64,000 nt of DNA from Candidatus Omnitrophota bacterium. GTDB lineage: Bacteria > Omnitrophota > Gorgyraeia > Gygaellales > Profunditerraquicolaceae. The stretch spans positions 10,104 to 74,103 of the forward strand of contig JAUSED010000010.1 of assembly GCA_030650425.1 (NCBI GenBank). Reading direction: 5' to 3'. Under the pieces are notes generated by a model, which had not been told where the DNA came from, did not search any database, and worked only from the letters and a program-made list of their open reading frames with translations. Positions 4,401-61,850 of this stretch are shown piece after piece (position 1 is the first letter of the stretch; each line of letters begins with the position of its first letter). The position numbers and the translations under genes were made by a program.

Positions 4401-7400
4401 TATCGGAACTGATATAATTATGCCTATCTCTCTCGACTACTCTTAACAAATCATAGGTTACAAAGGTTGCTTTAGTTTTCTTTAAGGCCCTCAGGCTAAT
4501 ACCATCATCACCAAGTTCTAAGGCTCCTTCTTGCCCTTCTATATTTCTTATAACTCTTCCCAGCAGAGAAAAAACAGGTATACTTTCTCCTTTGTTAAGA
4601 GCTGGTATTTTTACTTTTAGTTTAATCACTTTAGAGTTGTCTGTTTCTACGCCAGCCGCTTTAATCTCTTTAACATAAAATTCCCCCTTATTTCCTAACA
4701 TATTGTATAACCCGGAAAATAAATGCTCTCTCTCCAAAAGATATTCCCTTCCGGAAACAATCTCGGCGATCTGGGGATTATTAAAGTTAGAATCTGATTC
4801 CATCTTTTTTATAATGCTTCCTTCTCCGCGGGGTTTGGTAAAATTATCGGCAAGAGGGATAACACCCCACTTCTGCCGGGACTTTTCTTCTTGAGGGATT
4901 CTAAAGGGTTTCGTCTCTGGCGCTCCAGCATACCTATAAATATTAGGCGCCGCTTGCTGCGGGGAATCTACTTTTGAAGAGTAATTGAGAAAAGAATAAA
5001 TCCCAATATAATAAAGTGCCGCAAATAGCAATAGAAAAGGAATAAGAGGCGCATACTCGAAAACCTTAGAAATAAACCCAGTATGCTCCTTATTTACTTT
5101 TTCCGGGCTGCCTATTTCTTGTCCAACCAATATTCTTTCGGCTGTTTCTTTCGAAGGTAGTTCTTTCTTTTCTTCTGCCTCCTTCTGCCATTGAATAATC
5201 AACGCTCTCACCCACTCCAGATCTTCATCAGCATTAATTTTCGATAGATCAAGCGGCTCCAGAGAAATTTTCAACTGCGATCTTCTTGTATGTTGATTGT
5301 ATATAGATGTGCCGTCAGGAAAACTCAGGCGCCCTTTATCAAAGCTCCAACCTTCTATTTTATTTATCTCTCCTACGGGCGAAGAAACAGGTTTTTCCTG
5401 CGCCGACGAGGCGGGGGTATCAGCTAAATTAGAAACGGCCGCATTTCCCGTCCCCTTTTGCTCATTTTTCTCTAACCTCTCTAACAGTTGTGTTATATAA
5501 CCTATAATTTCTTGCCAGTAACGAGTATTTTCTTCTGATTCTAATCGTTTCTTTTCCTTAGTTAAAAACGTTTTTAATTCTTCTCTTGAGGAAAGCGGGA
5601 ATAGCTTGGGATTAATTTTTAATAAAGTCCTCATAGCCTCACGTTTCGCATAAAAGTCACCATCTTTATATTCTCGTAATATTGTAGCCAAAGGGGGTTT
5701 CTCTTTTACATACAATATGTCTTGATGCTGATTGGAGTAATCAAAGTATTTATCAGCTAAGATATCCTTCATTACGCTTTTATCTTCGCCTATCTTGCTC
5801 AAAATACCTCCTGATTTTAATAATGAATCTAAATAATGTGAAAGGGCATTCCGGGATTCTAATCCTAGGGGAACGTACTGTAAAACATGATGAACAAAAA
5901 GTATATCTAAATTACCCACTAAATTAGGCGTTGTTCCTGCTGAAACATCAGCAAGATCAACATCATAGAATTCTAAATGCGAATTCATTCTATCAGAACG
6001 TTTGTAACCTTTTAGCTCTTCCACAACATAAACCTCTTTAAAATAATCAGCCTTTTCTTTATCCGTGAAACCTGCGTTGTCTATAACAATTTTAGGGAAG
6101 ATAATCTGGTTATTCTTTACTCTGTCGTATACTTTATTCGAATAACTCATCACGTCCACTTTAACAGTTATAGCTTTCTCAATATCTTCACCTGGCCTAA
6201 GTTGCTCTAAAAGTATTTTAGGGATCTGGCGGCTAAAATATGCAACGGCTGTAATCGGTTCTTGCCCAGAGGCTGCTCCGATAACTCCGATTGTGATTAC
6301 TTGCTGCTGCCCTGTTCTACGGAATTCACTTAGTTTATCCTTAACCAAATCTCCGAAGCCAACCCTATTAGATATGCTTCTAAGAACATCATCATATCTG
6401 AAGAATTGAGACCATTGGTCAAAGATGAGTTCTACCAATATTTTATTCTTTCTCAATGCTTCAATAAAAGGTTGTTCATTAAAAGAATGCCTGGAATCAC
6501 CTCTTATGCGTGCTAAGACTTCCCATCCACTATGACCTAAGCGCGGAAAGAATTTCCTTTTTTCTTCTTTTATCGCTTTATCGATTTCTTCTTCAAAATT
6601 TGCTAAAACTAAATCAATTCTTTCAAAATCTCCTTTTTCTGTGCCAAAGACGCCAAACAAAGACTGCAATAATTCTTTCTTAACATCATTCGTTATGATT
6701 GGTTTACCTAATCCGGGAATAGATATCATTGGAATGGGAGCTTTTACATTTAACGACTGCTGAAAAGTAAACCGAGATTTTTTCATCAAATCCTTAATTA
6801 CACTTCTTACAGCCATTCCTCTAAAAACACTTACTTCTGCTAATTTCTCATATATTCCTTTTAAATAATAGTTACTTCCTTCTTTTATTTCTATTTGCAC
6901 CGCTGCCTGTAACACTAAATACAGAATTCTATCTTCCGTTTCGTGACCAAAAGCTCTTGGATTGATTAAAATTTGGTTGAATTTCCTTTCTATTGCCACA
7001 ACCGGACCATCTTCTCCTAAATCATAGGCACTTATCCTCCAAGAGGCTAATTTAAATTGATTAGATGTTCCGATTTTATCTAACTCATATTTTGACATGA
7101 ATTTATTGAATTCGTCAACTTGCATAACGCCAATAGCGGATGAGCTAGCTTGAATACCAATAACTAGCTTCTGCGCAATAGGTGCAAAAGAAGAGGCGCC
7201 TGATGGAGAAGGCCTTTCGGCTGGCGAAGCTTGAGACGAAGGTAACCCTTCTGTTATAGTTATATTAGTATCTGATGGGTTCATACCGTTTCCAATAACA
7301 GCTAAGACAGGCATATTATTATCGGTTAAAGGTGAAATACCTTTATCGCCGACTGTTTCAAAAAGACTTGTTGAATCTGTTACTATCTTGATAGGACTGC

Positions 7401-8739
7401 CAGACGTTGGAGAAACGGAAGAGAAAGGTATACCGCCTAGAGATAAGCCTCCGCTAAAATAGCTCCTAATCACCTGGCCAGTAGGAGTATAGGCTGGCTG
7501 TTGGATGTTGTATTCGCCGTCTTTAAAGGATTTTTGGTAGGCTTGGAAGTAGGTGGTTTTGGACCAAGGTTGTTGGGAAATAAGGTTGGTGAGGTTGCGG
7601 GAGTTGATGAGCGCAGAAGCTGCATCAGGGACAGTCCCCTGCGGGGACAGTCCCTGATGCCGAGGGAAAGTGTCCCCTGCTGCTGTTGCGTGTCTAGCTT
7701 TAAACCATTGGGCTAAGATTAAAGAATAATAGACTTGCCTTAAAGGGGCATAGCGTTTGGAGGTGTTTATATCTTTGGTGAGTTTGGGGATGATTAGTTC
7801 TCTGATTAATTGAGAGGAATATTCGTTTAATTGCTTTAGGCGATCATCTTTAAACTGATACTGCGCGTAGGGGACACTTTCCTTTAAAGAGTTCCCTGAT
7901 AGCCCTGACGGAAAATGTCCCCTGCTTTTACTCGAAAGATAATCAGACTCAAGCATTACTTTAAGGGTAGCTTTGTAGATGTAGGCCGACGGTGGCACTT
8001 CGACTCGCTTGCGCTCGCTCAGTGCGCTGGCTTCGCCAGCGGTTTCGCGGATGATGATTTCGCCCGGGACGATCCAAGGACGAGTTAAGGTGGGTATGGT
8101 GATGTTTTCGTTACCTAAGAGTTCACCTGCTTTTTGATAAAGCTTATCCCAGTAAAGCTTACCTTCGGGGGTTTCGGGAGAAGTGAATTTGGCAGTGTCT
8201 TTTTTAAGTTGGAGATCGGCTTCTAGAAGAATCTTACCTACGTCAGTCTTGGCTAAATAATCATCAATAATATTATCCTCTGCATCAGGGCGTAGGTTGA
8301 CCCAGAAGGAGCTGTTGGGAAGGGTAAGGCCGATGAAGAAATAATTTAAGAGAACCTTGGTTTCGTCTTTAAGTTTAGTTTCATCCAAGGGGACACTTTC
8401 CTTTGGGCCAGAAGGGGACACTTTCCTTTGAGTGGCTTCGCCATAGCTCTGACGGAAAGTGTCCCCTTCTGCAGAAGTTGGAAAATGTCCCCTGCTGTTC
8501 TTTTGGGGAAGCTGATCGCCCTTGTCTAAAAGAAGCTTAAAGCTGTTGTTTTCTGGAAGATATTGCAGGGAACGCAGATGCAAGGGGCGGAATTTGTCTG
8601 GGATAAGGGAATTACGGAAGAGAGCGAGATGGCCGGAGATATCCAGCTCGCCGGCGACTTGAGCAAAACCAGACTGCTCAAAAATTAACAAAAAGCAGAC
8701 TAAAAAATAGATAAATTTAGGGAATTTGCGTTTTGGCAT
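1489..8739 (-). CDS. Giant secreted multidomain protein (2416 aa). Signal peptide, transglutaminase-like Cys-His-Asp core, LysM-like segment. N- and C-terminal modules shared with the 44259..49622 paralog.
   Basis: Uninterrupted ORF. N-terminal MPKRKFPKFIYFLVCFLLIF hydrophobic signal. GECDTTSSFVWLMFRYLGV...H...D resembles a transglutaminase-like cysteine protease core. N-terminal ~400 aa and C-terminal ~130 aa align with the second giant ORF. Confidence 0.7.
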   Translation of the reverse strand: MPKRKFPKFIYFLVCFLLIFEQSGFAQVAGELDISGHLALFRNSLIPDKFRPLHLRSLQYLPENNSFKLLLDKGDQLPQKNSRGHFPTSAEGDTFRQSYGEATQRKVSPSGPKESVPLDETKLKDETKVLLNYFFIGLTLPNSSFWVNLRPDAEDNIIDDYLAKTDVGKILLEADLQLKKDTAKFTSPETPEGKLYWDKLYQKAGELLGNENITIPTLTRPWIVPGEIIIRETAGEASALSERKRVEVPPSAYIYKATLKVMLESDYLSSKSRGHFPSGLSGNSLKESVPYAQYQFKDDRLKQLNEYSSQLIRELIIPKLTKDINTSKRYAPLRQVYYSLILAQWFKARHATAAGDTFPRHQGLSPQGTVPDAASALINSRNLTNLISQQPWSKTTYFQAYQKSFKDGEYNIQQPAYTPTGQVIRSYFSGGLSLGGIPFSSVSPTSGSPIKIVTDSTSLFETVGDKGISPLTDNNMPVLAVIGNGMNPSDTNITITEGLPSSQASPAERPSPSGASSFAPIAQKLVIGIQASSSAIGVMQVDEFNKFMSKYELDKIGTSNQFKLASWRISAYDLGEDGPVVAIERKFNQILINPRAFGHETEDRILYLVLQAAVQIEIKEGSNYYLKGIYEKLAEVSVFRGMAVRSVIKDLMKKSRFTFQQSLNVKAPIPMISIPGLGKPIITNDVKKELLQSLFGVFGTEKGDFERIDLVLANFEEEIDKAIKEEKRKFFPRLGHSGWEVLARIRGDSRHSFNEQPFIEALRKNKILVELIFDQWSQFFRYDDVLRSISNRVGFGDLVKDKLSEFRRTGQQQVITIGVIGAASGQEPITAVAYFSRQIPKILLEQLRPGEDIEKAITVKVDVMSYSNKVYDRVKNNQIIFPKIVIDNAGFTDKEKADYFKEVYVVEELKGYKRSDRMNSHLEFYDVDLADVSAGTTPNLVGNLDILFVHHVLQYVPLGLESRNALSHYLDSLLKSGGILSKIGEDKSVMKDILADKYFDYSNQHQDILYVKEKPPLATILREYKDGDFYAKREAMRTLLKINPKLFPLSSREELKTFLTKEKKRLESEENTRYWQEIIGYITQLLERLEKNEQKGTGNAAVSNLADTPASSAQEKPVSSPVGEINKIEGWSFDKGRLSFPDGTSIYNQHTRRSQLKISLEPLDLSKINADEDLEWVRALIIQWQKEAEEKKELPSKETAERILVGQEIGSPEKVNKEHTGFISKVFEYAPLIPFLLLFAALYYIGIYSFLNYSSKVDSPQQAAPNIYRYAGAPETKPFRIPQEEKSRQKWGVIPLADNFTKPRGEGSIIKKMESDSNFNNPQIAEIVSGREYLLEREHLFSGLYNMLGNKGEFYVKEIKAAGVETDNSKVIKLKVKIPALNKGESIPVFSLLGRVIRNIEGQEGALELGDDGISLRALKKTKATFVTYDLLRVVERDRHNYISSDMRETPQLAKEFQILKTNPHLREIKDKLDSAKDAPFEEKIEAVRDIIRNNFIYNKYFDSELASGTYFDWLADTLAEGEKFRGECDTTSSFVWLMFRYLGVDALYAEGYSLGGTNAILKYPGHALILIHDKDFGWRPFDATEFMQEEIRYIGKFVQKESKPFLEKKTAKTEPEKVNKAEKPTKSVFQEAQLAVFKMLGYKEGLKDIVENKKVVDKTRIDALKELRKLKADKQLYDIASKEENSLISLDTTVDDILEVGGGWRLADNALELLRKCDNSSSRYREMVEDKKAYIWARIRALNKLEYSPAEFVDFDRAELIKLEPFFEEFIKKYSGKESVLYSNDETFLKEMVNALKILESEPWSKELKKEAERILEAKELWREKLKKKLAIKTPFFYQSVLHITLKGQSLSLLAFYYYGDRNQYSQIADANEYGLLSEEKNGQTPIGPPGWKIFIPEAKVVEHQVKKGDSIKSLVRQYYGENKGKSYGKRFSPARRIIGYNGLNLPVRLIPGGIMRIPMSTSEWERLQKKTPAEKGKGPNLPKSSGSPLAEEKGTVSNLPDTAASPAQQEPASLAAEVTVELTETYRPITQGEKEAALNKYAQMSEADFSMPIRLNSNNAGALEDGAIFHGTNREFEQFILSPKDMEYTMGLGFYFTDNTEQAQKYALRRTQQKITGNPQVVAARLIRSKLLDCRNNVPDEVINAWLKYLESLSLDWARVALRDRIFTYIRYRRHNKKPILLRQGGGSKETGVDGWFDGITQGFDFRIFILSLGYDGVIGMEGGEGRGDEAVGNHVSIVIFDPENIITYEMLNNFKESRKKNLQSVSSVNSPIILNKDKKGGIDFRALPAVSSPINPAMLKLSPIEINRLSNLNLDAEWAEIENMLKAGIIPSNQRLKEYVASSCLRQALGRQMGKVLGCIANILRMEEERVTETEPELEDMLVLIESGKPENELQLSLAQIQILPREPQLVTP
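7627..7680. repeat. Palindromic repeat, GGGGACAGTCCCC variant, inside giant ORF 1 in-frame
   Basis: cagggacagtcccctgcggggacagtccctgatgccgagggaaagtgtcccctgc. Translated in-frame as GDTFPRHQGLSPQGTVPD. Confidence 0.7.
7870..7925. repeat. Family A palindromic element (GGGGACACTTTCC...GGAAAATGTCCCC) inside giant ORF 1 in-frame
   Basis: ggggacactttcctttaaagagttccctgatagccctgacggaaaatgtcccctgc. Encodes SRGHFPSGLSGNSLKESVPY in the giant ORF. Confidence 0.75.
8389..8495. repeat. Compound family A element (two left arms plus long right arm) inside giant ORF 1 in-frame
   Basis: The same ~107-bp compound element recurs at 12304-12436 and 50308-50412 intergenically. Here it is translated as ...NSRGHFPTSAEGDTFRQSYGEATQRKVSPSGPKESVP.... 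Confidence 0.75.
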
Positions 8740-8755
8740 TTTTAGTTACGCTCCA

Positions 8756-8811
8756 GGGGACACTTTCCTTGAAAGAGTTCCCTGATAGCCCTGATGGAAA
8801 ATGTCCCCTGC
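8756..8811. repeat. Family A palindromic element just upstream of the giant ORF 1 start
   Basis: ggggacactttccttgaaagagttccctgatagccctgatggaaaatgtcccctgc. Confidence 0.75.
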
Positions 8812-8922
8812 GGGGTTTTTTTGCTGCCAGTCGTATGTTAATTCAAGTATACAATATAGGTAAGAGGATTCAAGGGGAAAGCGGGGATTTAGGGAAAGCG
8901 CTTTCTTTCGTAGCGAACTCGA

Positions 8923-8980
8923 AAAATGGGGACAGTCCCCAAAAGGCGGGGACAGTCCCCATTTTTTGTCCCCATTTTTT
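8923..8980. repeat. Tandem mini-hairpins AAAATGGGGACAGTCCCCATTTT x2
   Basis: gaaaaatggggacagtccccaaaaggcggggacagtccccattttttgtccccatttttt. The same unit occurs at 49343-49375 and 49716-49740. Confidence 0.65.
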
Positions 8981-9023
8981 CAGTTGTAGCCAAAGGGGAT
9001 TTTTGTTAGAATACTTTATTCCT

Positions 9024-12241: not shown

Positions 12242-12303
12242 ATTTAAAAATATTATACTGTAAGACTAGGGAGTTATCTATAAAAATAGTTTTCCTTCAT
12301 CCC

Positions 12304-12436
12304 AGGGGACACTTTCCTTTGGGCCAGAAGGGGACACTTTCCTTTGGGCCAGAAGGGGACACTTTCCATTGAGTGGCTTCGCCATAGCCCTGACGGAAAG
12401 TGTCCCCCTCTGCGGAAGTTGGAAAATGTCCCCTGC
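12304..12436. repeat. Compound family A element (three left arms), intergenic
   Basis: ggggacactttcctttgggccagaa x2 ... ggaaagtgtcccc...ggaaaatgtcccctgc. It generates spurious ORFs 12274..12594 and 12344..12550. Confidence 0.8.
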
Positions 12437-12472
12437 TGCTGGGGTTGCCATAAAATATATTTTCCTAGGGAC

Positions 12473-13054: not shown

Positions 13055-13095
13055 CAAGAATCCCAAGCTTTTTTCGGACTTGGGATTATTTGTTC
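13055..13095 (-). terminator. Hairpin AATCCCAAG-tccgaaaaaa-CTTGGGATT plus CTTGTTTT (minus sense), downstream of the DUF2950 gene
   Basis: Member of the recurrent CCCAAGC...GCTTGGG hairpin family. Confidence 0.45.
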
Positions 13096-13099
13096 CGCA

Positions 13100-13145
13100 A
13101 TCCTCTCAACTACAAGTAGTTAGATACAACATCTACGGTTTTTTT
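13100..13145 (-). repeat. Conserved post-stop motif AAACCGTAGATGTTGTATCTAACTACTTGTAGTTGAGAAG, copy 1
   Basis: Near-identical copies start at or near the stop codons at 13179, 33000 and 34320. Internal palindrome AACTAC..GTAGTT. Confidence 0.6.
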
Positions 13146-26497: not shown

Positions 26498-26580
26498 AAA
26501 AAGCCATCCCGCATTCTAATGCAAGATGGCGGCCCGACCATCGATAATCCTCCAGAGATATTTAAATATCTCTGAACCAC
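26498..26580 (-). promoter_or_regulatory. Candidate cis-regulatory structured RNA (riboswitch/attenuator-like) in the mscS leader
   Basis: Minus sense: hairpin CAGAGATATTTAAATATCTCTG; conserved hairpin GATGG-UCGGGCCG-CCAUC; alternative terminator GCCAUC...GAUGGC plus U6 directly before RBS GAGGAG. Paralogous copy at 29893-29970 with a compensatory hairpin. Confidence 0.5.
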
Positions 26581-29892: not shown

Positions 29893-29970
29893 AAAAAAAC
29901 AAAACCACCAACTGCAATTTCGCAGATGGCGGCCCGACCATCTAAACCTTCAGGAAATCTTCCTGAACCC
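29893..29970 (-). promoter_or_regulatory. Second copy of the candidate cis-regulatory RNA, in the hflK leader
   Basis: Same GATGGTCGGGCCGCCATC hairpin. The variable hairpin TTCAGGAAATCTTCCTGAA has different sequence but keeps pairing. The alternative terminator CCAtCTGC...GCAGtTGG plus a U-rich run precedes RBS AAGGAG. Confidence 0.5.
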
Positions 29971-32904: not shown

Positions 32905-32959
32905 AGTTTACACAACCTATTATACTACAACTGATTCCTAAGGGAATTTGTTTCGCAAT

Positions 32960-34208: not shown

Positions 34209-34279
34209 AAATATATACTGCCACTGGTTAACAAACAGAGTGTCCCTTTTTGGGACGTCCCCCCTTTTCTTTCCAATCC

Positions 34280-36194: not shown

Positions 36195-36362
36195 CCCCTA
36201 TTTTCTAGAGAATTGCCTTTAGATTCTAATGTCTAAACTCATAATAACGTTCCTTTGTTATTGATTATATTCTACCTCGGTTTTTGAGTTTTACAATCGA
36301 AAAGACGGGATTGCTTCGGCTGCTGCGCTGCCTCGCAATGACGGGGGAGCTAAAAAAACAAG

Positions 36363-36436
36363 GGGACACTTTCCTTTAAAAAGTAACAAATAGCTCTGAC
36401 GGAAAATGTCCCCTTCAATTACTGTGTCCCCTGCTG
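36363..36436. repeat. Family A element
   Basis: ggggacactttcctttaaaaagtaacaaatagctctgacggaaaatgtcccc...gtgtcccctgc. Confidence 0.8.
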
Positions 36437-36441
36437 CGGAA

Positions 36442-36834
36442 TTATTGGCAGCAGGATCTTTCTTTTTCTTCGGCGCTTGAACCGGCTTTGCAGAGGCTGT
36501 GTAGCTTACGAAGCTGCTCTTTGGAAAGCATCTTTTTAAGCGTCACGAACGCGCTCAAAAGCTCTTTCATCGACTCTTTTTTAAGCGTGTACTTTCTGTC
36601 GAGCAGTTTGGCGATCTCAGCCATATCCGGCGAGTCATCCCATAGCTTTGACATAATGTCTACGGCTATCGTTTCAACCTCCGCGTTAACTTTAATCAGG
36701 CTTTTTTTCGTATCCAGCTTCAAATCCTTAACCTTACGCAGGTTTTCATCGGAAAAACCTAATTCAGCCTGATTTTCAAAGATCGCGTGCGCCATTTTGA
36801 AAAATTTGTTGCTTAGGCATTGTTTATGCATATT
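36442..36834 (-). CDS. Hypothetical helical protein with LTxxQ-like repeats (Spy/CpxP-like?)
   Basis: Start taken at MHKQCLSNKFF. The longer ORF start lies inside a repeat element. FSDENLRKVKDL and LSKEQLRKL motifs. Confidence 0.35.
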   Translation of the reverse strand, partial: NMHKQCLSNKFFKMAHAIFENQAELGFSDENLRKVKDLKLDTKKSLIKVNAEVETIAVDIMSKLWDDSPDMAEIAKLLDRKYTLKKESMKELLSAFVTLKKMLSKEQLRKLHSLCKAGSSAEEKERSCCQ

Positions 36835-36854
36835 GCACCCCCTTTCGGTGATCA

Positions 36855-36909
36855 GGGGACACTTTCCTTTTGAAAGTTCCACATAGCTCTGACGGAAAAT
36901 GTCCCCTAC
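36855..36909. repeat. Family A element
   Basis: ggggacactttccttttgaaagttccacatagctctgacggaaaatgtcccctac. Confidence 0.8.
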
Positions 36910-36990
36910 TGATGACTTAATTATATAAAAATAGGGGTAAGTTGGGAATTGGGCGGGGACACTTTTTATGGATGTTTTTCTACTAGAAGA

Positions 36991-37053
36991 AAAGGCGAAA
37001 CAGTTTCCTGTCCGGCCTTCGCAGATAGCTTTCTGCGGAAACTGTTTCTTGCG
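36991..37053. repeat. Family B palindromic element (GAAACAGTTTCC...GGAAACTGTTTC)
   Basis: aaaaggcgaaacagtttcctgtccggccttcgcagatagctttctgcggaaactgtttcttgcga. Paralogs at 39085-39149 and 41636-41703. Always adjacent to a family A copy. Confidence 0.75.
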
Positions 37054-37059
37054 AAGAAG

Positions 37060-38955
37060 TTATAAATCAGAGAGGTTTTCGAGGTATTCCCAGCGCTGGG
37101 TGGCTTGGTCTATCTCGGTGGAGAGTGCTTCGGAGCGGGACTCGGCTTGGGCTCTTTCGGTAGGGGTTTTCTGGTAAAAACTGATATCCGCGAATAGGGC
37201 GTAGAGCGCTTTTTGCTCTGCTTCCAGTTGCTCTATTTTTAAGGGAAGTTCGTCTAATTCCTGCTGTTCTTTAGACGTGAGCTTGCGCGGGATAATCGGC
37301 TTTTCTTTTTTGAGCGGCTCTTTTTTAGGCTTGGCCTTTGACGGCTCAGACGCTGTTTCAGTATGGCGCTGGCTTAACCAATCATCATACCCTCCGGGAT
37401 ATTCATTAACCACGCCATCACCTTCCAAGGCAATGGTCGAGGTAACTACATTATTCAGGAATTGCCGGTCATGACTGACTAAAAGTAAAGTGCCGTCATA
37501 CTCCGAAAGTAATTCTTCCAAAAGCTCCAAGGTCTCGATATCCAGATCATTGGTCGGTTCATCCATTACCAGCACATTAGAGGGCTTGGAAAAAAGCCGG
37601 GCAAGCAAGAGGCGGTTACGCTCGCCTCCGGAAAGAACTTTAACCTTAGTGCGGCTGCGGTCCGGGGCAAAAAGAAAATCCTGCAGATAACCCAAGATAT
37701 GCTTGGGCTTGCCGTTAATGATGATTGTTTCGCTGGAATCATTAACATTCTCAGCCACGGTTTTTTCTTCATCAAGTTGTTCGCGCAGCTGGTCGTAATA
37801 AGCAATCTCTAAGTTCGTGCCGAGAGTGGCTTTGCCCCGCTGAGGCTCAAGCTTACCTAAGAGAATGCGTAAAAGCGTAGTTTTGCCGCTGCCATTGGGG
37901 CCGATCACCCCGATCTTATCGTGACGCATAATATTGGTGGAAAAATCGCGGATCAGGCATTTATCGCTATAACTAAAATGCAGTTGAAAGGCTTTAATTA
38001 CTTTGTGGCCGGAGAGGACTGATTTTTGGGCGCGCATACGCACCAAACCCTCTTCTTTGCGCTGAGCCTTCTTCTCCTGCCTTAAACGCTCAAGGGCCTT
38101 GACCCTGCCTTCATTACGACAACGCCGGGCCTTCACTCCCTGACGAATCCAGACCTCTTCTTCGGCTAACTTTTTATCAAAATGCTTCCATTCTGATTCT
38201 TCAATATCCAAGGCCGCCTCTTTACGCGCCAAGAAAGTTTTATAATCGCAAGACCAGCTGAAGATCCTGCCCCGGTCAAGCTCAACGATGCGGGTTGCCA
38301 GATGGGTCATAAACATCCGGTCATGGGTCACAAAAAAGACCGTGCCCGGATAATCCGCCAAAAACTCCTCCAGCCAATTAATCGAATCAATATCCAGATG
38401 ATTAGTCGGCTCATCTAAAAGCAAAACCTCTGGTTTTAAGACCAAGGCCCGGGCTAAGAGCACCCTGCGCTTCTGTCCTCCGGAGAGGCTTGAGAAATCG
38501 CTATCAGCGTCCAGCTTCATCTTGGAGATAACATTCTCCACCTGATTATTCACATCCCAACTTTCCGTGCGATCCAACTCTGCCTGCACAATATCCAGCT
38601 GACGCAGTAATTCTTTGCTATGCTCGATATGCAAACGGTGAGTAAGCTGATGGTAGCGGCTCAAAAGATTGGCCCGCTCTCCCAAGCCGGAAAGGACAAT
38701 ATCATAAACATTACCTTCTATCTGGGCTGAAACTTCCTGAGGAAGGTGGGTAATCTGGATACCTTTTTGCAGGACCACTTGGCCAGCATCAGGCGAAAGC
38801 TCCCCTGCCATCACCTTCATCAGGGTGGTTTTGCCCGCGCCATTACGGCCAAGCAGGGCCACTCGCTCGCCCGATTCCAATTGCAAGTTTAAGCAATCAA
38901 AAATAAGCGGGCCGCCGAACTTTAAACTGAGCTCTTGTAAACTAATTAATGCCAT
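37060..38955 (-). CDS. ABC-F family ATPase with two ABC cassettes and C-terminal coiled-coil (Uup-like)
   Basis: Two Walker A (GRNGAGKTT, GPNGSGKTT), two LSGG signatures, C-terminal EQQELDELPLKIEQLEAEQKAL coiled-coil. No TMD. Confidence 0.85.
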   Translation of the reverse strand: MALISLQELSLKFGGPLIFDCLNLQLESGERVALLGRNGAGKTTLMKVMAGELSPDAGQVVLQKGIQITHLPQEVSAQIEGNVYDIVLSGLGERANLLSRYHQLTHRLHIEHSKELLRQLDIVQAELDRTESWDVNNQVENVISKMKLDADSDFSSLSGGQKRRVLLARALVLKPEVLLLDEPTNHLDIDSINWLEEFLADYPGTVFFVTHDRMFMTHLATRIVELDRGRIFSWSCDYKTFLARKEAALDIEESEWKHFDKKLAEEEVWIRQGVKARRCRNEGRVKALERLRQEKKAQRKEEGLVRMRAQKSVLSGHKVIKAFQLHFSYSDKCLIRDFSTNIMRHDKIGVIGPNGSGKTTLLRILLGKLEPQRGKATLGTNLEIAYYDQLREQLDEEKTVAENVNDSSETIIINGKPKHILGYLQDFLFAPDRSRTKVKVLSGGERNRLLLARLFSKPSNVLVMDEPTNDLDIETLELLEELLSEYDGTLLLVSHDRQFLNNVVTSTIALEGDGVVNEYPGGYDDWLSQRHTETASEPSKAKPKKEPLKKEKPIIPRKLTSKEQQELDELPLKIEQLEAEQKALYALFADISFYQKTPTERAQAESRSEALSTEIDQATQRWEYLENLSDL

Positions 38956-38984
38956 AGGACCTCATTAATGTATAGGGGACACTT

Positions 38985-39030
38985 TCCTTTTAAGAGTCCC
39001 CGGATAGCTTTGACGGAAAATGTCCCCTGC
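38985..39030. repeat. Family A element
   Basis: ggggacactttccttttaagagtccccggatagctttgacggaaaatgtcccctgc. Confidence 0.8.
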
Positions 39031-39084
39031 TGTGCGACGACTGTTTCTTGCGAAAGGGTTGCTGTGAGTGTTATGGAAATAGAG

Positions 39085-39149
39085 AAAAAGGCGAAACAGT
39101 TTCCTATCCGGTCTATCTGAATACTTCTACGGAAACTGTTTCTTGCGAG
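39085..39149. repeat. Family B element
   Basis: aaaaaggcgaaacagtttcctatccggtctatctgaatacttctacggaaactgtttcttgcgag. Confidence 0.75.
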
Positions 39150-39166
39150 TATTTTAGAAGAATTAC

Positions 39167-39619
39167 TTAGGCGCGGTCGCGGCTGCGCTTGCGGAAAATA
39201 GGCTTCTTCCTGCCGGCTGGCCTGCTGTCTTCCCTGGGGCTGCGGTCGAATTTGGGCTTAAACGAACCTCTCTCCCCACCTACACTGCCGCCTTCTTTGC
39301 GCTTGGAAAAACAATCTTTGCAGTATATTGGACGGTCTCCGGTAGGCTTAAAGGGAACCTCACATTCAGTATTGCATTCCGCGCAGATAGCTTTAGTAAA
39401 ACTTCTCTCGCGGAAGCTATTTTCCCGGCCCCCTCTATCGCGGCGATAAGGATTATCGAAACGCTGGGCAGGCCTAGCTGTGGAAGACTGGGCAATCAGG
39501 GTGTCGAGCTTCTTCTCCAGAAAAGTTAATTGCTGTTGGATTCTACCAATGGCAGAGGCTAGATCTGACTCAGCCTGTGGTTCAAATACTGGGGGTTTAC
39601 GTTTAAATATCTTTTTCAT
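39167..39619 (-). CDS. Zinc-ribbon (CxxC-x17-CxxC) protein with Arg-rich tails
   Basis: CAECNTECEVPFKPTGDRPIYCKDCF. Basic R/K-rich C-terminus. Start taken at MKKIFKRK. Confidence 0.45.
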   Translation of the reverse strand: MKKIFKRKPPVFEPQAESDLASAIGRIQQQLTFLEKKLDTLIAQSSTARPAQRFDNPYRRDRGGRENSFRERSFTKAICAECNTECEVPFKPTGDRPIYCKDCFSKRKEGGSVGGERGSFKPKFDRSPREDSRPAGRKKPIFRKRSRDRA

Positions 39620-39767
39620 CTTGCTCCTTGTGTACAAACACAACACCGGCGTAATTCAAATAAACGCCGGGTGTCTTTTATCGTGGTTAAGTTGCTATAC
39701 TTTAACTATCTACTATACACCTTTTGGGGGATAAAGCAAAGGGTTCTTGAGAGACAAGGGGACACTT

Positions 39768-39812
39768 TCCTTTAAGCCGTATCTGATAGCTTTGACGGAA
39801 AATGTCCCCTGC
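39768..39812. repeat. Family A element
   Basis: ggggacactttcctttaagccgtatctgatagctttgacggaaaatgtcccctgc. Confidence 0.8.
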
Positions 39813-39817
39813 TATTG

Positions 39818-40525
39818 TTAGGAAAAAAGCTCTCTGGCGCCGTGCTTATCTTGGATATAGACTTCGGGGATAAATTCTATGGAGTTAGGGATAAGGTCGG
39901 ACATAACTTTTTTTAGGCGTAACTGCTGGGTGGCATTTTGAAGGTCAAAGATGGGATTTTGGCTAAGATCGTTTAATAAAAGAATAACCGGATTATAGGG
40001 AAAAACAAAATCCTTCAAAAGCTGTTTGATCAGCAGGTCTAAATAATCCGGCTTGTCCTTAAAAACATTTACCGCGGTTTTAAAAGTGATTTTTCCCCAA
40101 TCCTCAGCAATAGTTTTATGGATCAGGGCGTAGCTAGAAGAATATTTAACCATTCTGGCTTGGCCGGGAGATAATTTACTGGCGGCGTTAATAATCACCG
40201 TGGTAAACTCGGAATGCTTAAATGTTTTGATCTCTTTGTGGATATCAATAGTGAGCAGGTCAAAAATGTAGGCGCCGCGCACGCTGGATGCCGCGCTGAT
40301 CGTGCTGCGCTTGACGAAATCCTCTACCGCATCCCAAAGGATCTTTTCATCATCGCGAATAAAATTTAAAGATAGAATATGGCAGGTTTGGCCTTCGCGC
40401 ATCGCTTGATATTGGCGGACTTTGTCCTCATTATGGCCGGCATAGGAAATTTCGTCAAAAAGGGGCATATGCTGGAAGAGGTTGGAATTTTGGAAGCCGA
40501 AGTCGATGAGGTTCATAATAAGCAA
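39818..40525 (-). CDS. Hypothetical protein, 235 aa, no family recognised
   Basis: Long ORF flanked by repeat elements. No motif recognised from sequence. Confidence 0.35.
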   Translation of the reverse strand: MLIMNLIDFGFQNSNLFQHMPLFDEISYAGHNEDKVRQYQAMREGQTCHILSLNFIRDDEKILWDAVEDFVKRSTISAASSVRGAYIFDLLTIDIHKEIKTFKHSEFTTVIINAASKLSPGQARMVKYSSSYALIHKTIAEDWGKITFKTAVNVFKDKPDYLDLLIKQLLKDFVFPYNPVILLLNDLSQNPIFDLQNATQQLRLKKVMSDLIPNSIEFIPEVYIQDKHGARELFS

Positions 40526-40533
40526 ATACTCAA

Positions 40534-40648
40534 GGGGACACTTTCCTTTTCCCGCCAGGCTATGTAATAGCGGGCGGGATCCCGCCTGATAAAGAATAGC
40601 TTGGCGGGAAAAGAGTTCCCGATAGCTTTGACGAAAAATGTCCCCTGC
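40534..40648. repeat. Family A element with a ~55-bp insertion inside
   Basis: ggggacactttccttttcccgccaggc...gcgggatcccgcctg...gatagctttgacgaaaaatgtcccctgc. Confidence 0.7.
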
Positions 40649-40661
40649 TATTTAGTACATT

Positions 40662-41615
40662 CTAAATACTCTCAATTATCTTTATCATTTCCTCTTTGTT
40701 CTTTACCCGAGAGGATTTTTCGCGCAATGGCCGGATTTGACGGAAACCTTTGGTGTACCAGCCGAAAAACTTGCGGTAGATGACTACTCCGTTGCGCTCG
40801 CCATAAAAGGCGATAGAAGCATTTAAATGCTCCAGCATTACTTTAATCACCTCAGACTGCGCGGGCCGGGAAATAATTTTACCGCTCTTTAAAAACTCTC
40901 TAATCTCTTTAAAGATCCACGGGTTGCCAAACGAACCGCGGGCAATCACCAACCCGTCGCAATTTGTTTCATCGAGCATCTTTTTGGCTAATTGCGCGGA
41001 TAAGATATCGCCGCTGGCAATAACCGGGATATTTAAGGCCTTCTTCACTTTCTGAATTACGGCGTAATTTACCTTTCCACTATACTCTTCGACCTTGGTT
41101 CTACCGTGGATAAATAACGCGCTTACTCCGGCATCTTCAGCGTAAAGGCTGACCTCTTTGGCGTTGATACTCTGCTGATCCCAACCAATGCGCATCTTTA
41201 CCGTAACCGGGACTTGGGAATGCTTGACCACTAATTTCAATAATTTATTTAATTTTTTGGGTTCTTTGAGCAAGGCTGCTCCCTCTTGGCGCCGGACCAC
41301 TTTCTTTGCCGGACAGGCGGCGTTAAAATCAAGCAGGTCAAATTTATAATCTTTAAGCACATCCAAAGCCTTAAGCATGAATTTTTCTTCGCAGCCTAAT
41401 AATTGTACGCCTAAAGGCTTATCCTTAGGATGCGAGCTAAGCATACTCCGCGTCCTTTTGCTTTTATGGCCGATCGAACGGGCATTGATCATTTCCACAA
41501 AGGCAAGCTCGGCGCCGAATTTGCGGTTGAGCATCCGGAAAGGCAGGTCGCTTACCCCGGCCATAGGGGCGAGGATGAGGTTGGATTTGAGTTTTAGATT
41601 ACCGATTTTGAGCAT
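40662..41615 (-). CDS. tRNA-dihydrouridine synthase (DusB-like)
   Basis: LAPMAGVSDLPFR..., catalytic C in FNAACPAKKV, K in VTVKMRIGWD. Start taken at MLKIGNL, because the longer ORF start runs into a repeat. Confidence 0.8.
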   Translation of the reverse strand: MLKIGNLKLKSNLILAPMAGVSDLPFRMLNRKFGAELAFVEMINARSIGHKSKRTRSMLSSHPKDKPLGVQLLGCEEKFMLKALDVLKDYKFDLLDFNAACPAKKVVRRQEGAALLKEPKKLNKLLKLVVKHSQVPVTVKMRIGWDQQSINAKEVSLYAEDAGVSALFIHGRTKVEEYSGKVNYAVIQKVKKALNIPVIASGDILSAQLAKKMLDETNCDGLVIARGSFGNPWIFKEIREFLKSGKIISRPAQSEVIKVMLEHLNASIAFYGERNGVVIYRKFFGWYTKGFRQIRPLREKSSRVKNKEEMIKIIESI

Positions 41616-41635
41616 AGTATAATATTTCAATTCAA

Positions 41636-41703
41636 AGAGACAGTTTCCTGTCAACCTTCGTAAATAGCCTACTGCGGAAACTGTCCCTTTCGAGGATACG
41701 CAA
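41636..41703. repeat. Family B element (degenerate right arm)
   Basis: agagacagtttcctgtcaaccttcgtaaatagcctactgcggaaactgtccctttcgag. Confidence 0.65.
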
Positions 41704-41805
41704 GGGGACACTTTCCTTTAAGCCGTATCTGATAGCTTTGACGGAAAATGTCCCCTGCGAGTAGGAGGTTAAGAGTATTCCAGCCTGACGGAAAATGTCC
41801 CCTGC
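41704..41805. repeat. Family A element with a duplicated right arm
   Basis: ggggacactttcctttaagccgtatctgatagctttgacggaaaatgtcccctgc...cctgacggaaaatgtcccctgc. Confidence 0.8.
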
Positions 41806-47200: not shown

Positions 47201-49622
47201 CTTTTAACCTCTCCACAATATCAGGAATGAATCTTGGGCTTGCCCACCCTTCAGGCGGCATAAAATTAACAAATAATATATGGCCGCCAGGAGCGACTAA
47301 TTCTTCGGATTTCCTAAAATACTCAACGACATTTAATAATGGATCTTCTCTCAGAGATGGATCATACATCTTATAAGGCCCATAAATATTCATATATGTA
47401 CGCATATTATAAAAAAGTATGACATCCGGCTTTTTTTGTAAACCTAATGCTCTTAAGGAATTGGGGTTAAACTCGAAGAAATCTTTTTCCCATATTTCAA
47501 AGTAACCTTCTTTAATGCCATAAGGTATTCGCGTGTCCACATTGACTACTCTATAGATTGGAACGCCTTGTTCATTACGGACAGAAAGCGGATTAGCGCC
47601 GTAACCGATATTTAGAATTACACTCCCTTCGGGAACCCCTAAAGCTTTTAAGAAAATCCTCAGATTATCCGAAGCCTCTTTATTATAGTACTCACCAGGA
47701 TGTTCTTTGAGCCCAGTCAACACCACAGTATTACCTGCTTCTTCCATCGCCAAAGAAGAGACGGTTTCTTTCTGCGCCGGTGAGGCGGCTGGGCTGCTGG
47801 ACAAACCATAATCCCTTAATTGAAAATCCTGTATGGCTTTCTCGGCATAGAAAACAATGTTGTTATATTCTGCCTCTTCTAAACGAACGCCTCCTCGATA
47901 AAAATCGCTTTCTGGGGCGTTAACGGAAAGAACGACCACGCCCGTATCCCCAAAAGAAGCTGCCAAATGTTCAAGGCCGGCACCTTCCGGATAAGGATCC
48001 ACGTAAAACCCTTCATCTTCTAAAAAAACGTAGTAATGAGCGCCCCCCCCTTTTTCATCCTTTTTTTCCATCACGTAAGCCTCGTTTCCTTGTGACCTCA
48101 AAACCAAGGTCAACCACGCCGCGTGAACAGCACATACGGCCTGAGGCATCGTCCGCTTCAAAAAAATCCTCGTATTTTTAGCAAACTTAAAAACGGCTTC
48201 CTTAGTCATCGGCGAACCGGCGGATTCGACTCGCCCACCTTCGGCGGGCTCGCTCACCACCAATCTTGAGCTTGTCGAAGGGATGGTTACCTGAATTCCC
48301 GCGACTGCACCTGGTGTTCCCTGAATGTCCATAACTAACTCGCCACTACGGACAGCTGGCGAACTTGTAGCAACTATCGTTGACACAGGGCTCGAGCCAG
48401 CATTTACGGTACCAAACGGTTGGATGTTGATAGCAAAATTTTCTCCTCCGCTAAAATAGCTCCTGATCACCTGACCTGTGGGAGTATAGACTGGTTCTTT
48501 AATGTTGTATTCGCCGTCTTTGAAGGATTTTTGGTAGGCTTGGAAGTAGGTGGTTTTGGACCAGGGTTGTTGGGAAATAAGATTGGTGAGGTTGCGGGAG
48601 TTGATGCGCGCATCAGGAGACACTTTCCTTTTGAGGGTTCCATTATCGCCCTGACGGAAAATGTCCCCTACTTTTAGAGTATGCCGGGCTTTAAACCATT
48701 GGGCTAAGATTAAAGAATAATAGACTTGCCTTAAAGGAGCATAGCGCTTGGAGATGTTAATATCTTTGGTGAGTTTGGGGATGATTAGTTCGCGGATTAA
48801 TTGAGAAGAATATTCGTTTAATTGCTTGAGACGTTCATCCTTAAACTGATACTGCGCGTAGGGGACACTTTCCTTTTGAGCGTTCTCTGATAGCCCTGAC
48901 GGAAAATGTCCCCTACTTACACTTGAAAGGTAGTCAGACTCAAGCATTACCTTAAGCGTAGCCTTATAAATGTAGGCTGAGGGCGCGTCTTTCGTTTCTC
49001 TGATGATAATCTCATCCGGTACTATCCATGGGCGGGTTAGGGTAGGAATGGTTATGTTCTCAGAGCCAAAGAGCTCTCCTGCTTTGGCATAGAGCTTATT
49101 CCAGTAGTCTCTGCCTTCAGGGGTCTCTGGTGAGGTAGCTAAAGCAGTGTCTTTCTTAAGCTGGAGATCAGCTTCCAGCATAATCTTACCTACATCAGTT
49201 TTAGCTAGGTAGTCATCGATAATATTGTCTTGGGCATCTGGACGTAGGTTGACCCAAAAGGAATCGTTGGGGAGGGTTAGGCCGATGAAAAAGTAGTTGA
49301 GGAGGGTTTTGGTGGATACTTCTAGTGATTCTGTAGAAAAAGGGGACAGTCCCCAAAAAACGGGGACAGTCCCCTTTTTCTGTTCGCTTTTGGGGAATTG
49401 GTCGCCTTTGTCTAAATAAAGTTTAAAGCTGTTGTTTTCGGGAAGATACTGCAGGTAACGCAGGTGCAGGGGACGAAATTTGTCTACTCCAAAAGAATTA
49501 TGCAGGGCGGTAAGGCGAGCGGCAATGTTGAGCTCTACAGCGACTTGCGCAAAGCCGGATTGCTGGATAGCCAACAAGATACAGAGAAAAATAGCGATAA
49601 TTTTTAGGGATTTTTTTCGCAT
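44259..49622 (-). CDS. Giant secreted multidomain protein 2 (1787 aa), paralog of 1489..8739
   Basis: The N-terminal ~400 aa share motifs with giant 1: FAQVA.EL, DKFRPLHLR.LQYLPENNSFKL, LLNYFFIGLTLPN.SFWVNLRPDA.DNIIDDYLAKTDVGKI. The C-terminal ~130 aa are also shared (GGIDFRALP...KEYVASSCL). The central region differs. Confidence 0.7.
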   Translation of the reverse strand: MRKKSLKIIAIFLCILLAIQQSGFAQVAVELNIAARLTALHNSFGVDKFRPLHLRYLQYLPENNSFKLYLDKGDQFPKSEQKKGTVPVFWGLSPFSTESLEVSTKTLLNYFFIGLTLPNDSFWVNLRPDAQDNIIDDYLAKTDVGKIMLEADLQLKKDTALATSPETPEGRDYWNKLYAKAGELFGSENITIPTLTRPWIVPDEIIIRETKDAPSAYIYKATLKVMLESDYLSSVSRGHFPSGLSENAQKESVPYAQYQFKDERLKQLNEYSSQLIRELIIPKLTKDINISKRYAPLRQVYYSLILAQWFKARHTLKVGDIFRQGDNGTLKRKVSPDARINSRNLTNLISQQPWSKTTYFQAYQKSFKDGEYNIKEPVYTPTGQVIRSYFSGGENFAINIQPFGTVNAGSSPVSTIVATSSPAVRSGELVMDIQGTPGAVAGIQVTIPSTSSRLVVSEPAEGGRVESAGSPMTKEAVFKFAKNTRIFLKRTMPQAVCAVHAAWLTLVLRSQGNEAYVMEKKDEKGGGAHYYVFLEDEGFYVDPYPEGAGLEHLAASFGDTGVVVLSVNAPESDFYRGGVRLEEAEYNNIVFYAEKAIQDFQLRDYGLSSSPAASPAQKETVSSLAMEEAGNTVVLTGLKEHPGEYYNKEASDNLRIFLKALGVPEGSVILNIGYGANPLSVRNEQGVPIYRVVNVDTRIPYGIKEGYFEIWEKDFFEFNPNSLRALGLQKKPDVILFYNMRTYMNIYGPYKMYDPSLREDPLLNVVEYFRKSEELVAPGGHILFVNFMPPEGWASPRFIPDIVERLKDRKTTIFKTRNSDYSKVAVAFSPEVSSLVTATKSSASPAQKETASSAINIIPSIKRWWGKFVSNKPTQNKELIKVGDIPDTERLGGNLSGKDHTIEIIARNTPGLIQPSTVIAFANVPDVIVAITEAIKGNVQKMAVLYLTNLFLKHNLESLHSPLLKLRNNGIIFEPAFSRMMSLYARQRGFAGENIGGIYFTSYGLYTNGLQAKFKNDQLAMELDIPSEVKFEYEQKEGSIDALSFWREGKLIGQKTKEPIIFYTPTLDFIEAKAEKAGVRLLGISPSFDKVFYITTYGEVISMSISGRRYMNNLQETTQNSKAWLNARYPNVNMDSLNAFLSALKPSVSRVTSTSGEELKYILTAKDIAGAGPYFELEKPVVSIRDSRRLVKRGLVYYQGLLFKPTPEGKEALKKAFALKKINDETLDFILTHLMYTALNANAEKAILLELEDIFLYGISGHYSTLKHVFTTGNRAKIYSLQKELVLQEAETIKNGSAQKASIFSTITVGYKGKALDLRANGPFDLLLMLLTEETLDHNETMVDITSILENKLTMVVNKQTLSLEDILTNQINFKDGDIVYFKEPAASPAQKQPVSSAVEVKIEVPQNTSSPINEKISKKQRREIAKQYLIKLGVKFDRLTPERQPQLAKLELGMNLFESEPHKQLINRLVKKIQRLSQLLKVEIGIHIAPSADLPIMLEDEFYGNCIIVSPSMLRNRGVAKNVKQAKAVLEEFGSVFLGDIGLKRGKPSVPVALFISAYQEKVEDEEFISNQFPYRDFFVLYSDERTFEQRLLGLVQWDFDEIDGKPPYWFRYVLVERYLDKLLEIAEHQNNRKQNAQSLSSPIVTDTHKQANSVVNNGVDDGKGGIDFRALPIVTQAMSNLRLSASSVISLSQLKSLNLNQELQEMQKLVDAGITPSAERIKEYVASSCLQGNPDTQKVVSCIADILRLEEERCYPTEVTLKDILVVLESGMPNQELKAVFTGLR
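48616..48670. repeat. Family A element, in-frame inside giant ORF 2
   Basis: ggagacactttccttttgagggttccattatcgccctgacggaaaatgtcccctac, translated as VGDIFRQGDNGTLKRKVSPD. Confidence 0.7.
48861..48916. repeat. Family A element, in-frame inside giant ORF 2
   Basis: ggggacactttccttttgagcgttctctgatagccctgacggaaaatgtcccctac, translated as VSRGHFPSGLSENAQKESVPY. Confidence 0.75.
49343..49375. repeat. GGGGACAGTCCCC mini-hairpin pair, in-frame inside giant ORF 2
   Basis: ggggacagtccccaaaaaacggggacagtcccc. Encodes KKGTVPVFWGLSPF at the position where giant 1 carries a family A insert. Confidence 0.7.
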
Positions 49623-49715: not shown

Positions 49716-49740
49716 GAAAAATGGGGACAGTCCCCATTTT
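49716..49740. repeat. AAAATGGGGACAGTCCCCATTTT mini-hairpin upstream of giant ORF 2
   Basis: Same unit as at 8923-8980 upstream of giant ORF 1. Confidence 0.65.
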
Positions 49741-50307: not shown

Positions 50308-50412
50308 GGGGACACTTTCCTTTGGGCCAGAAGGGGACACTTTCCTTTGAGTGGCTTCGCCATAGCTCTGACGGAAAGTGTCCCCTTCTGCAGAAGTTGG
50401 AAAATGTCCCCT
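50308..50412. repeat. Compound family A element, intergenic
   Basis: Near-identical to 8389-8495. Confidence 0.8.
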
Positions 50413-61848: not shown

Positions 61849-61850
61849 AA

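Follow-up and report, generated by a model that had tools for sequence, protein, structure and literature searches.

Rickettsia palindromic elements (RPEs) are palindromic repeats that lie in frame within genes and insert a few additional residues where the protein fold can accommodate them (reviewed in PMC10969869). In-frame fusions with host open reading frames (ORFs) are occasionally also made by transposable elements of the miniature inverted-repeat type (MITEs) (PMC10969869), and classes of repetitive extragenic palindromic (REP) sequences can be exchanged for one another at orthologous places, a behavior named "orthoswitch" (PMC3686654). Here we describe hairpin-forming repeats within two giant genes of a Candidatus Omnitrophota bacterium, found in a 64,000-nt stretch of contig JAUSED010000010.1 (positions 10,104 to 74,103, assembly GCA_030650425.1; hereafter the window). 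At one loop of a domain that both genes encode, two different repeat families occupy nearly the same nucleotide junction, and in homologous genes the occupant of this loop varies further. A literature search found no paper on palindromic repeats in Omnitrophota genes, and recent preprints on Omnitrophota giant genes do not mention these repeats.

Nearly all genes of the window lie on the minus strand, and so do giant 1 (ORF 1489-8739, 2416 amino acids [aa]) and giant 2 (ORF 44259-49622, 1787 aa). Both begin with a signal peptide within a shared N-terminal module of ~430 aa (the N-module), in which the two proteins are 91% identical over the core alignment columns, and they differ in the "cargo" between their terminal modules: that of giant 1 contains a transglutaminase core and a DUF3990/ART-PolyVal-like region according to Pfam, and a Pfam search with giant 2 gave no match. 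In loop 1 of the N-module, giant 1 carries in frame a compound palindromic repeat (8389-8495) of a family that we call A, with arms GGGGACAYTTTCC/GGAAARTGTCCCC. Its four 13-nt arms (8389-8401, 8414-8426, 8454-8466 and 8480-8492) belong to units spaced at a 25-nt period, and it measures 104 nt from arm to arm, or 107 nt if the family-typical GCA up to 8495 is counted. The loop-1 insert of giant 2 is an in-frame doublet of GGGGACWGTCCCC (family M), ~90% similar to another doublet at 8922-8965. An earlier reading of the DNA from sequence alone (the sequence-only reading) had quoted the translations of both inserts exactly and had recognized the pair in giant 2, although its coordinates for the latter (49343-49375) were off by one, the two copies of GGGGACAGTCCCC lying at 49342-49354 and 49362-49374. 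As RNA, the giant 1 element is predicted to fold with -66.3 kcal/mol (z = -7.6) and the giant 2 doublet to form one 18-bp hairpin with -35.8 kcal/mol (z = -7.1); five of the six reading frames are open in the former and all six in the latter.

In the alignment of the N-modules, both inserts are placed between DKGD and LLNYFFIG. The leader DNA from the GD codons to the first GGGGAC is homologous in the two genes apart from small frame-shifting indels (CAGCTTCCCCAAAAG--AACA^G in giant 1 and CAA-TTCCCCAAAAGCGAACAG^ in giant 2, with carets at the junction), hence the 5' junctions are only 0-1 nt apart. From the last GTCCCC to the LL codons there are 36 nt in giant 1 and 37 nt in giant 2, and the 3' junctions are at most ~5 nt apart. 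Since the inserts are at homologous positions, the observation that both giants carry an insert at the same site stands. The accompanying statement that the two elements are unrelated does not: the family M 13-mer equals the outermost 6+6 nt of the family A arms, the terminal heptamer GGGGACA/TGTCCCC is common to both, and the two families are joined in a chimera in loop 3 of giant 1. One may ask whether M is simply a stump of A left by a central deletion (GGGGACA^...^GTCCCC), with which the sequences are compatible, but M is a multi-copy family with conserved A/T flanks that occurs in many other organisms, and we therefore keep this only as a possible relationship.

Both families are copied repeats. 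The family A arm has 37 matches at up to two mismatches, against 0.9 expected, and the family M 13-mer has 12 against 0.02 expected. Family A takes the form (G)CA-GGGGACATTTTCC-GTCAGRGCTAT...AAA-GGAAAGTGTCCCC-T and is present in 13 or more copies over the 64 kb, mostly between genes, and all 12 simple copies are oriented alike relative to the minus-strand genes. Seven repeat copies lie in frame within the two giants, and none is present in the ~10 kb of their cargo-coding sequence. In particular, the loop-1 copy of giant 1 is identical at 104 of 104 positions to an intergenic copy at 50308-50411, and is thus a copied DNA repeat rather than a protein motif. It might still be argued that the peptide was selected for its amino-acid sequence, with no DNA element involved, given that SRGHFP...ESVP and GLSP...GTVP recur in many homologues. 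However, this idea has to face not only the identical copy in non-coding DNA but also the intergenic position of most copies, the reading of the same family A arm in two frames within giant 1 (RGHFP or GDTF; RKVSP or KESVP) and the predicted disorder of the inserted peptides, and we regard it as scarcely credible. We class family A with the REP/MITE-like DNA repeats, as an element that forms hairpins and is non-autonomous. Copying has taken place between intergenic and coding sites, the repeats are almost without stop codons, and their arms are conserved at the DNA level whatever the reading frame, whereas loops and coding flanks diverge. No Rfam family covers them.

A scan for the exact family A pattern, made with one genome per species and blind to context, found 30 stretches in about ten genomes, all of them Omnitrophota except for one metagenome-assembled genome (MAG) labelled Planctomycetales. 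Across these genomes the arms are identical, the loops are lineage-specific and compound copies are frequent. Only one copy in these 30 loci lies in a long ORF, and that ORF again encodes an N-module; of the 50 simple copies in the window and 35 loci taken together, long ORFs contain nine, each of them within an N-module. The M doublet has a different distribution: a metagenome scan found it at 120 or more loci, mostly on unrelated high-GC contigs (median 67% GC), and among the matches listed none carries an N-module. The doublet is thus widespread rather than diagnostic. On one metagenomic contig of 45% GC (L134, 1614-4478, minus strand), two in-frame M doublets (KGLSPQGTVPEQ and KWGLSPPPEGTVPIL) are found in a gene for an RHS-repeat protein, one of them identical at 31 of 31 positions to the doublet in loop 3 of giant 1.

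Homologues of the N-module number more than 320, and the named ones are almost all from Omnitrophota MAGs; the module matches no Pfam family and no fold in the PDB. Loop 1 could be delimited in 103 of them, and we call it occupied if it holds an insert of at least 20 aa. It measures exactly 15 aa in 62 (consensus LKNPxTQELExTSKE) and 20-54 aa in 30, the extra residues being translated hairpin repeats of at least six kinds. The commonest occupant across the protein family is the M-type doublet GLSP...GTVP, ahead of family A, which is found in giant 1 and in the homologues P0009, P0088 and P0119; other hairpin peptides are VIASPEGAKQS, SPGHQV, IPNSKSQ and GTGRDLS. The four loops are expanded in 28/101, 18/113, 48/115 and 42/122 homologues (the three besides loop 1 by at least 5 aa), with 18/113 being the figure for loop 4. 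An AlphaFold2 model of residues 1-433 of giant 1 has a mean predicted local distance difference test score (pLDDT) of 80.6 and a predicted template modelling score (pTM) of 0.77, and pLDDT falls below 50 only at residues 82-104, 277-287 and 358-365. These are the inserts, which according to the model sit in disordered surface loops between well-folded helices and strands.

Comparison of the DNA of relatives shows how closely different occupants share their ends. A simple family A element is present at the loci L028 (P0009) and L035 (P0119), with the junctions of giant 1 (AGCA^GGGGAC...GTCCCC^T(G/T)GGAT), and their arms match those of giant 1 at 26/26 and 25/26 positions, whereas the coding flanks are only 60-72% identical. 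L034 (P0085) and L157 (P0062) share the flanks of L035 (QFS.S ^.D.A.LQ.ETKT) and carry an unrelated hairpin of 33 nt (GTCATTGCGAGCC.CGAAGGGGCGAAGCAATCT), whose junction differs from that in L035 by no more than 1 nt. In L033, L156 and L158 the occupant is a 29-nt M doublet, and in each of them 7 nt separate it from the preceding GD codons and 30 nt from the LL codons that follow. Taken over the eleven genes inspected, five hairpin types have their ends within ~6 nt of each other inside a 45-nt loop; the families share junctions to within 0-6 nt. The number of arms also varies at the orthologous site, with 2+2 in giant 1, 3+1 in L001 (which is syntenic with giant 1 and has the same first spacer but a diverged loop), and 1+1 in L028 and L035. 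Moreover, occupancy goes together with the adjoining sequence: a trailing flank motif, ...L(Q/K)xET(K/Q)x, is present in 18 of the 30 occupied loop-1 alleles and in none of the 73 empty ones.

The other loops tell a similar story. In loop 3, giant 2 has a full family A element where giant 1 has only the left arm of one and then an M doublet, with the same boundaries. This M doublet is identical to copies in L134 and L156. Its origin by fold-back copying in situ (CATCA...TGATG) was considered, and is weakened by those identical doublets of 29-31 nt. In loop 2 both giants have a simple family A element, and the copy of giant 1 is closer to the copy in its own 5' untranslated region at 8756-8808 (96%) than to its counterpart in giant 2 (91%). 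L001 is the closest relative, and in its giant 1 orthologue (1081-1260) loop 2 is taken up by different palindromes (GTCATCCTGAGCCCCGAAGGGGCGAAGGATCT and AGATTCTTCAGCCGCTTCGCGGCTTCAGAATGAC). They are immediately preceded by an in-frame TAG within the LE(S/Q)DYL motif and followed by a shifted reading frame, which points to either a pseudogene or an assembly error. The coordinates of the features in the window are collected in the table below.

Table. Repeat-bearing modules and hairpin repeats in the 64-kb window
Feature	Coordinates	Strand	Remarks
N-terminal module of giant 1	7444..8739	-	signal peptide and ~430-aa conserved domain; four repeat-bearing loops
N-terminal module of giant 2	48444..49622	-	91% core identity to giant 1
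Compound family A element, loop 1 of giant 1 (aa 81-117)	8389..8495	-	two left arms, 27-nt loop, two right arms
Family M doublet, loop 1 of giant 2	49337..49379	-	two GGGGACTGTCCCC 20 nt apart, A5/T5 flanks
Simple family A element, loop 2 of giant 1 (SRGHFPSGLSGNSLKESVP)	7870..7922	-	pLDDT <50 at residues 277-287
Simple family A element, loop 2 of giant 2	48861..48913	-	91% identical to the giant 1 loop-2 copy
Chimera, loop 3 of giant 1	7627..7677	-	family A left arm 7665-7677, then 29-nt M doublet 7627-7655
Simple family A element, loop 3 of giant 2	48616..48668	-	same boundaries as the giant 1 chimera
Extra 16 aa (AGEASALSERKRVEVP), loop 4 of giant 1	7993..8040	-	third type of small hairpin; giant 2 lacks it
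Intergenic compound family A copy	50308..50411	-	same sequence as in giant 1; adjoins the stop codon of gene 50417-51052
Intergenic compound family A copy upstream of recG	12305..12433	-	third right arm, 4 substitutions
Simple family A copy upstream of giant 1, 17 nt from its start codon	8756..8808	-	L001 has a different hairpin there
M doublet just upstream of the giant 1 promoter block	8922..8965	.	absent from the orthologous L001 spacer
Single M hairpin just upstream of the giant 2 promoter block	49718..49740	.	just downstream of the stop codon of a peptidyl-prolyl isomerase (PPIase) gene
Intergenic family A cluster, one orientation	36362..41802	-	36362-36413, 36855-36906, 38975-39027, 39758-39809
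Intergenic family A cluster, further copies	36362..41802	-	40534-40645, 41704-41755, solo arm 41790-41802

How do these repeats compare with the systems described before? RPEs are their closest analogue in behavior, and the two are not homologous. In both, palindromic hairpin repeats are found between genes as well as in frame inside them, and insertion is compatible with the protein fold, the inserts here being the only regions modelled with pLDDT <50. They are set apart by host and by distinct arm and loop sequences with no Rfam match, without alignment to the consensus sequences of RPE-1 to RPE-10. In addition, the units are 33-107 nt long here and roughly 100-150 nt in RPEs, in-frame family A copies were seen in only one protein module whereas RPEs are spread over many unrelated genes, the arms here are perfectly conserved across genera, and several unrelated families alternate at one junction. 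With REPs and the compound elements built from them (BIMEs and REPINs), the repeats share short imperfect palindromes, inverted doublets that form one long hairpin (as in giant 2), high copy number, stems that are more constant than the remaining parts, and the switching of classes between orthologous sites. However, REPs are extragenic by definition whereas seven copies here are in frame within the giants; the loop starts with GTCAG in the window, with no conserved GTAG, although GTAG follows the arm in many copies of STB_56; and REP elements are defined by a cognate REP-associated tyrosine transposase (RAYT, an IS200/IS605-like Y1 enzyme) whose gene the repeats flank, of which there is none among the ORFs of at least 150 aa in the 64 kb. 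MITEs such as Correia, ERIC and Nezha are likewise small and non-coding, with terminal inverted repeats (here the 13-nt arms) and in-frame fusions, but the repeats of the window show no visible target-site duplication, have no parent insertion sequence (IS) with the same ends in the window or the 35 loci, and can carry repeated arm units with a 25-nt period at their ends. Finally, the M unit, with its GC stem, flanking A and T runs and bidirectional terminator score, is reminiscent of terminator-like dispersed repeats such as SPRITE of pneumococcus, except that here a putatively terminator-like unit lies inside an ORF and is translated.

The sequence-only reading had left two explanations side by side, a permissive hotspot that received independent insertions or the replacement of one element family by another, and each finds support. 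A permissive site fits the inserts of at least 20 aa in 30 of 103 modules, the six or more types of hairpin peptide and the similar state of three further loops. In its pure form, this explanation holds that insertion is nearly random, that only in-frame and stop-free copies survive, and that the two giants were hit independently, with neither targeting nor replacement. It would account well for the repeats being nearly stop-free and for their loops being the only low-confidence parts of the AlphaFold2 model, and it gains from the scatter of occupied modules among empty ones in a tree of the module core, from the empty loop of P0001, which is close to giant 2, and from the empty-type trailing flank of giant 2. 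But near-random insertion does not readily explain why five hairpin types in eleven genes join within ~6 nt inside a 45-nt loop, why the leader DNA of the two giants is homologous to each other and unlike that of empty alleles, or why the flank motif is tied to occupancy (18/30 versus 0/73). Nor does it predict that the ~10 kb of cargo-coding sequence is free of copies and that the only long-ORF copy among the 30 context-blind loci is again in an N-module. Hence, we consider the purely permissive explanation unlikely, though it has a real chance of being right.

Replacement, in turn, agrees with the shared flanks and junction of L035 and L034, with the loop-3 chimera and with the flank motif of occupied alleles. 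We favor a reading that combines the two, in which REP/MITE-like elements are tolerated in disordered loops and the occupant turns over at a site that has long been occupied. We infer turnover because the flank motif separates occupied from empty alleles, because unrelated hairpins are found at junctions shared at the nucleotide level, and because some elements are chimeric. Loop 1 would have been in an occupied state for a long time while its occupant changed. New hairpin elements would insert at or into a resident hairpin, or would overwrite it by short-patch conversion through the shared GGGGAC/GTCCCC termini, and slippage between the 25-nt arm units would alter the number of arms, which would explain the counts of 2+2, 3+2, 3+1 and 1+1. 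Selection would then keep only those states that are in frame and free of stops, in loops where additional disordered peptide does no harm. Insertion into hairpins is an established behavior of some IS families. IS1111/QMITE2 provides an example of such hairpin-targeted insertion (PMC10969869).

Several observations weigh against turnover at a long-occupied site. Pfam scans of the window ORFs of at least 150 aa revealed no transposase or RAYT, neither these nor an IS-sized unit bounded by family A arms turned up in the window or ~250 kb of fetched loci, and no target-site duplication was seen at the ends of the copies inspected or in comparisons of occupied with empty alleles. In the core tree, a rough neighbor-joining tree, occupied and empty modules are intermingled. 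P0001, encoded at L032, is empty at loops 1 and 3 (GAC ACC AAG AAC CCA GCC ACC CAA GAG at loop 1) although its core is 90% identical to that of giant 2, so that precise loss, independent gain or recombination is needed. The trailing flank of giant 2, STESLEVSTKT, resembles the empty type, which makes an independent insertion into giant 2 possible. Apparent gene conversion between modules blurs their ancestry, and a search of a set of 5.8 billion proteins for population variants gave nothing closer than 63% (giant 1) or 70% (giant 2) in overall identity and no direct view of presence/absence polymorphism of the two inserts, the nearest alleles for comparison being more distant empty (L032) and occupied ones. 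Because of the lack of a transposase, target-site duplication and parent IS, the scattered tree, the mosaic of the two giants and the empty-type flank of giant 2, we hold the turnover reading with moderate confidence, as somewhat better than an even bet. The mosaic itself is visible in the nucleotide identity between the two N-modules, which is 88-92% in the 3' part (7448-7961 versus 48445-48952) and 71-76% in the 5' part (8042-8727 versus 48994-49613), a pattern that suggests gene conversion between the paralogues.

One may argue instead that the hairpins are selected as cis-acting RNA or DNA structures, for example as an intragenic attenuator or terminator (the giant 2 doublet), as a site of pausing or protein binding, or as a recombination hotspot behind gene conversion between N-modules. 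In the window, M hairpins are confined to the 5' ends of the two giants, namely within loops 1 and 3 and a short way upstream of the promoter block, and this block is conserved upstream of giant 1, giant 2, L001, L032 and L033. Judged by sequence, M units are GC-rich stem-loops followed by a T run and look terminator-like on both strands, and giant 2 would have two of them on its sense strand. The conservation of the arms across genera at synonymous positions, the single orientation of all 12 window copies relative to transcription and the great predicted stability of the folds (-66 and -36 kcal/mol) point in the same direction. However, ~70% of the homologues do without a loop-1 insert and the occupant may be any of at least six unrelated hairpins with loop sequences that are not conserved, thus a cis-acting function is not required by the data. 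Moreover, the loop-2 inserts of L001 coincide with a stop codon and a frameshift, and the orientation bias cannot separate transcription from replication because the nearby genes are all on one strand. On balance, selection for a cis-acting structure seems improbable. The promoter-like block itself, GCGCTTTCCC..CCTTGAATCC.CTTACCTATATTGTATACTT (TTGAAT-16-TATACT), precedes N-module genes in several Omnitrophota genomes and is located at 8840-8905 and ~49640-49715 in the window, at 200-290 in L001, at 415-480 in L032 and at 9915-9975 in L033.

A bolder extension of turnover is that the four loops are long-lived "landing pads", with a hairpin-specific system that exchanges one occupant for another at junctions exact to the nucleotide and also keeps the 13-nt arms identical across genera. 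The hairpins might then serve the cell, for example by attenuating transcription from within the giant genes, or by acting as recombination hotspots through which N-modules are homogenized and cargo domains shuffled. We offer this as a speculation that would, in our judgement, probably turn out wrong.

Other features of the giants deserve mention. A C-terminal module of ~120 aa (GGIDFRALP...IKEYVxxSCL...) is common to both giants (1489-1900 and 44259-44650), L001 (5053-5466) and the distant homologues P0026 and P0030; in this family a variable cargo is therefore enclosed by conserved modules at the N and C termini. A DNA repeat of 41-64 nt encodes the linker (S/A)SPAQ(K/Q)E(T/P)(A/V)SS at cargo-domain boundaries of both giants (2689-2757, 5377-5445, 45429-45497, 47061-47101, 47751-47791 and 48183-48223), and these repeats may be joints for domain shuffling. 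Next to giant 1, the plus-strand ORF 8733-10154 (473 aa) is a FemAB-like/GNAT gene whose real start is near 9024; its first ~97 codons (8733-9023) are a spurious open frame that arises from stop-free A and M repeats in the divergent spacer.

Outside the giants, the family A copy upstream of recG (12305-12433) has flanks (12288-12304 and 12434-12450) that resemble the coding flanks of loop-1 copies (TGGGATGAAGGAAAACT, compared with TTGGATGAAACTAAACT in giant 1 and TGGGATGATGCCAAACT in L035), which hints that the element may have reached this site from an N-module and brought its flank along, or that it moved in the opposite direction. The recG gene (10127-12241, minus strand) contains a 31-nt palindrome, GCGCCTGCCTTGCCTGCCGGCAGGCAGGCGC (11987-12017), which is read in frame as WRLPAGRQGRRR and may be another in-frame palindromic insert, here in a housekeeping gene; its peptide LPAGRQG also occurs inside hairpin inserts of P0002. 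Intergenic spacers repeat the pattern of the loops: the spacers of UBA6233 that are syntenic with those of the window, including those of the family A cluster at 36362-41802, have other repeats at the same intergenic sites, and a search there for empty intergenic sites gave no clean junctions since the spacers are too rearranged.

The window has two further repeats. A hairpin, AAAATCCCAAGC-TTTT-GCTTGGGATT, is probably a terminator and is found at 13055-13091, 32484-32520, 55499-55535, 55684-55714, 56482-56512, 57040-57070 and 57196-57232, and a 48-nt repeat, CAATCCTCTCAACTACAAGTAGTTAGATACAAC, is found at 13098-13145, 32956-33003 and 34274-34321. Two matches to the nhaA-I (sodium-responsive) riboswitch exceed the Rfam gathering score (26524-26579 and 29924-29970, minus strand), one upstream of an MscS-like channel gene and the other upstream of an SPFH/Band-7 gene pair. 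A 5S rRNA is located at 61849-61965, and in the region 62199-63986 (minus strand) a fragment of 23S rRNA covers model positions 2049-2912 over 1234 nt and is then interrupted again. ORFs 62560-63099 and 63447-63986 match LAGLIDADG_1 and LAGLIDADG_2, hence the interrupted 23S gene probably contains two intron-encoded homing endonucleases.

In-frame palindromic repeats have been a textbook curiosity of Rickettsia, and the Omnitrophota case indicates that they are not peculiar to one reduced genome. Here the phenomenon centers on a single conserved module of very long secreted proteins, a module specific to the phylum, and on four of its loops, with at least six hairpin families alternating at the same junction. 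For annotation, the repeats inflate and fragment gene calls, as in the L001 orthologue with its in-frame stop and its frameshift at loop 2, and they give rise to spurious ORFs, of which the N-terminal extension at 8733-9023 is an example; they will confuse the annotation and alignment of Omnitrophota giant genes. At the same time, these genes provide a natural system for learning how hairpin repeats choose and re-use their sites, and how much disordered peptide a protein fold can absorb.

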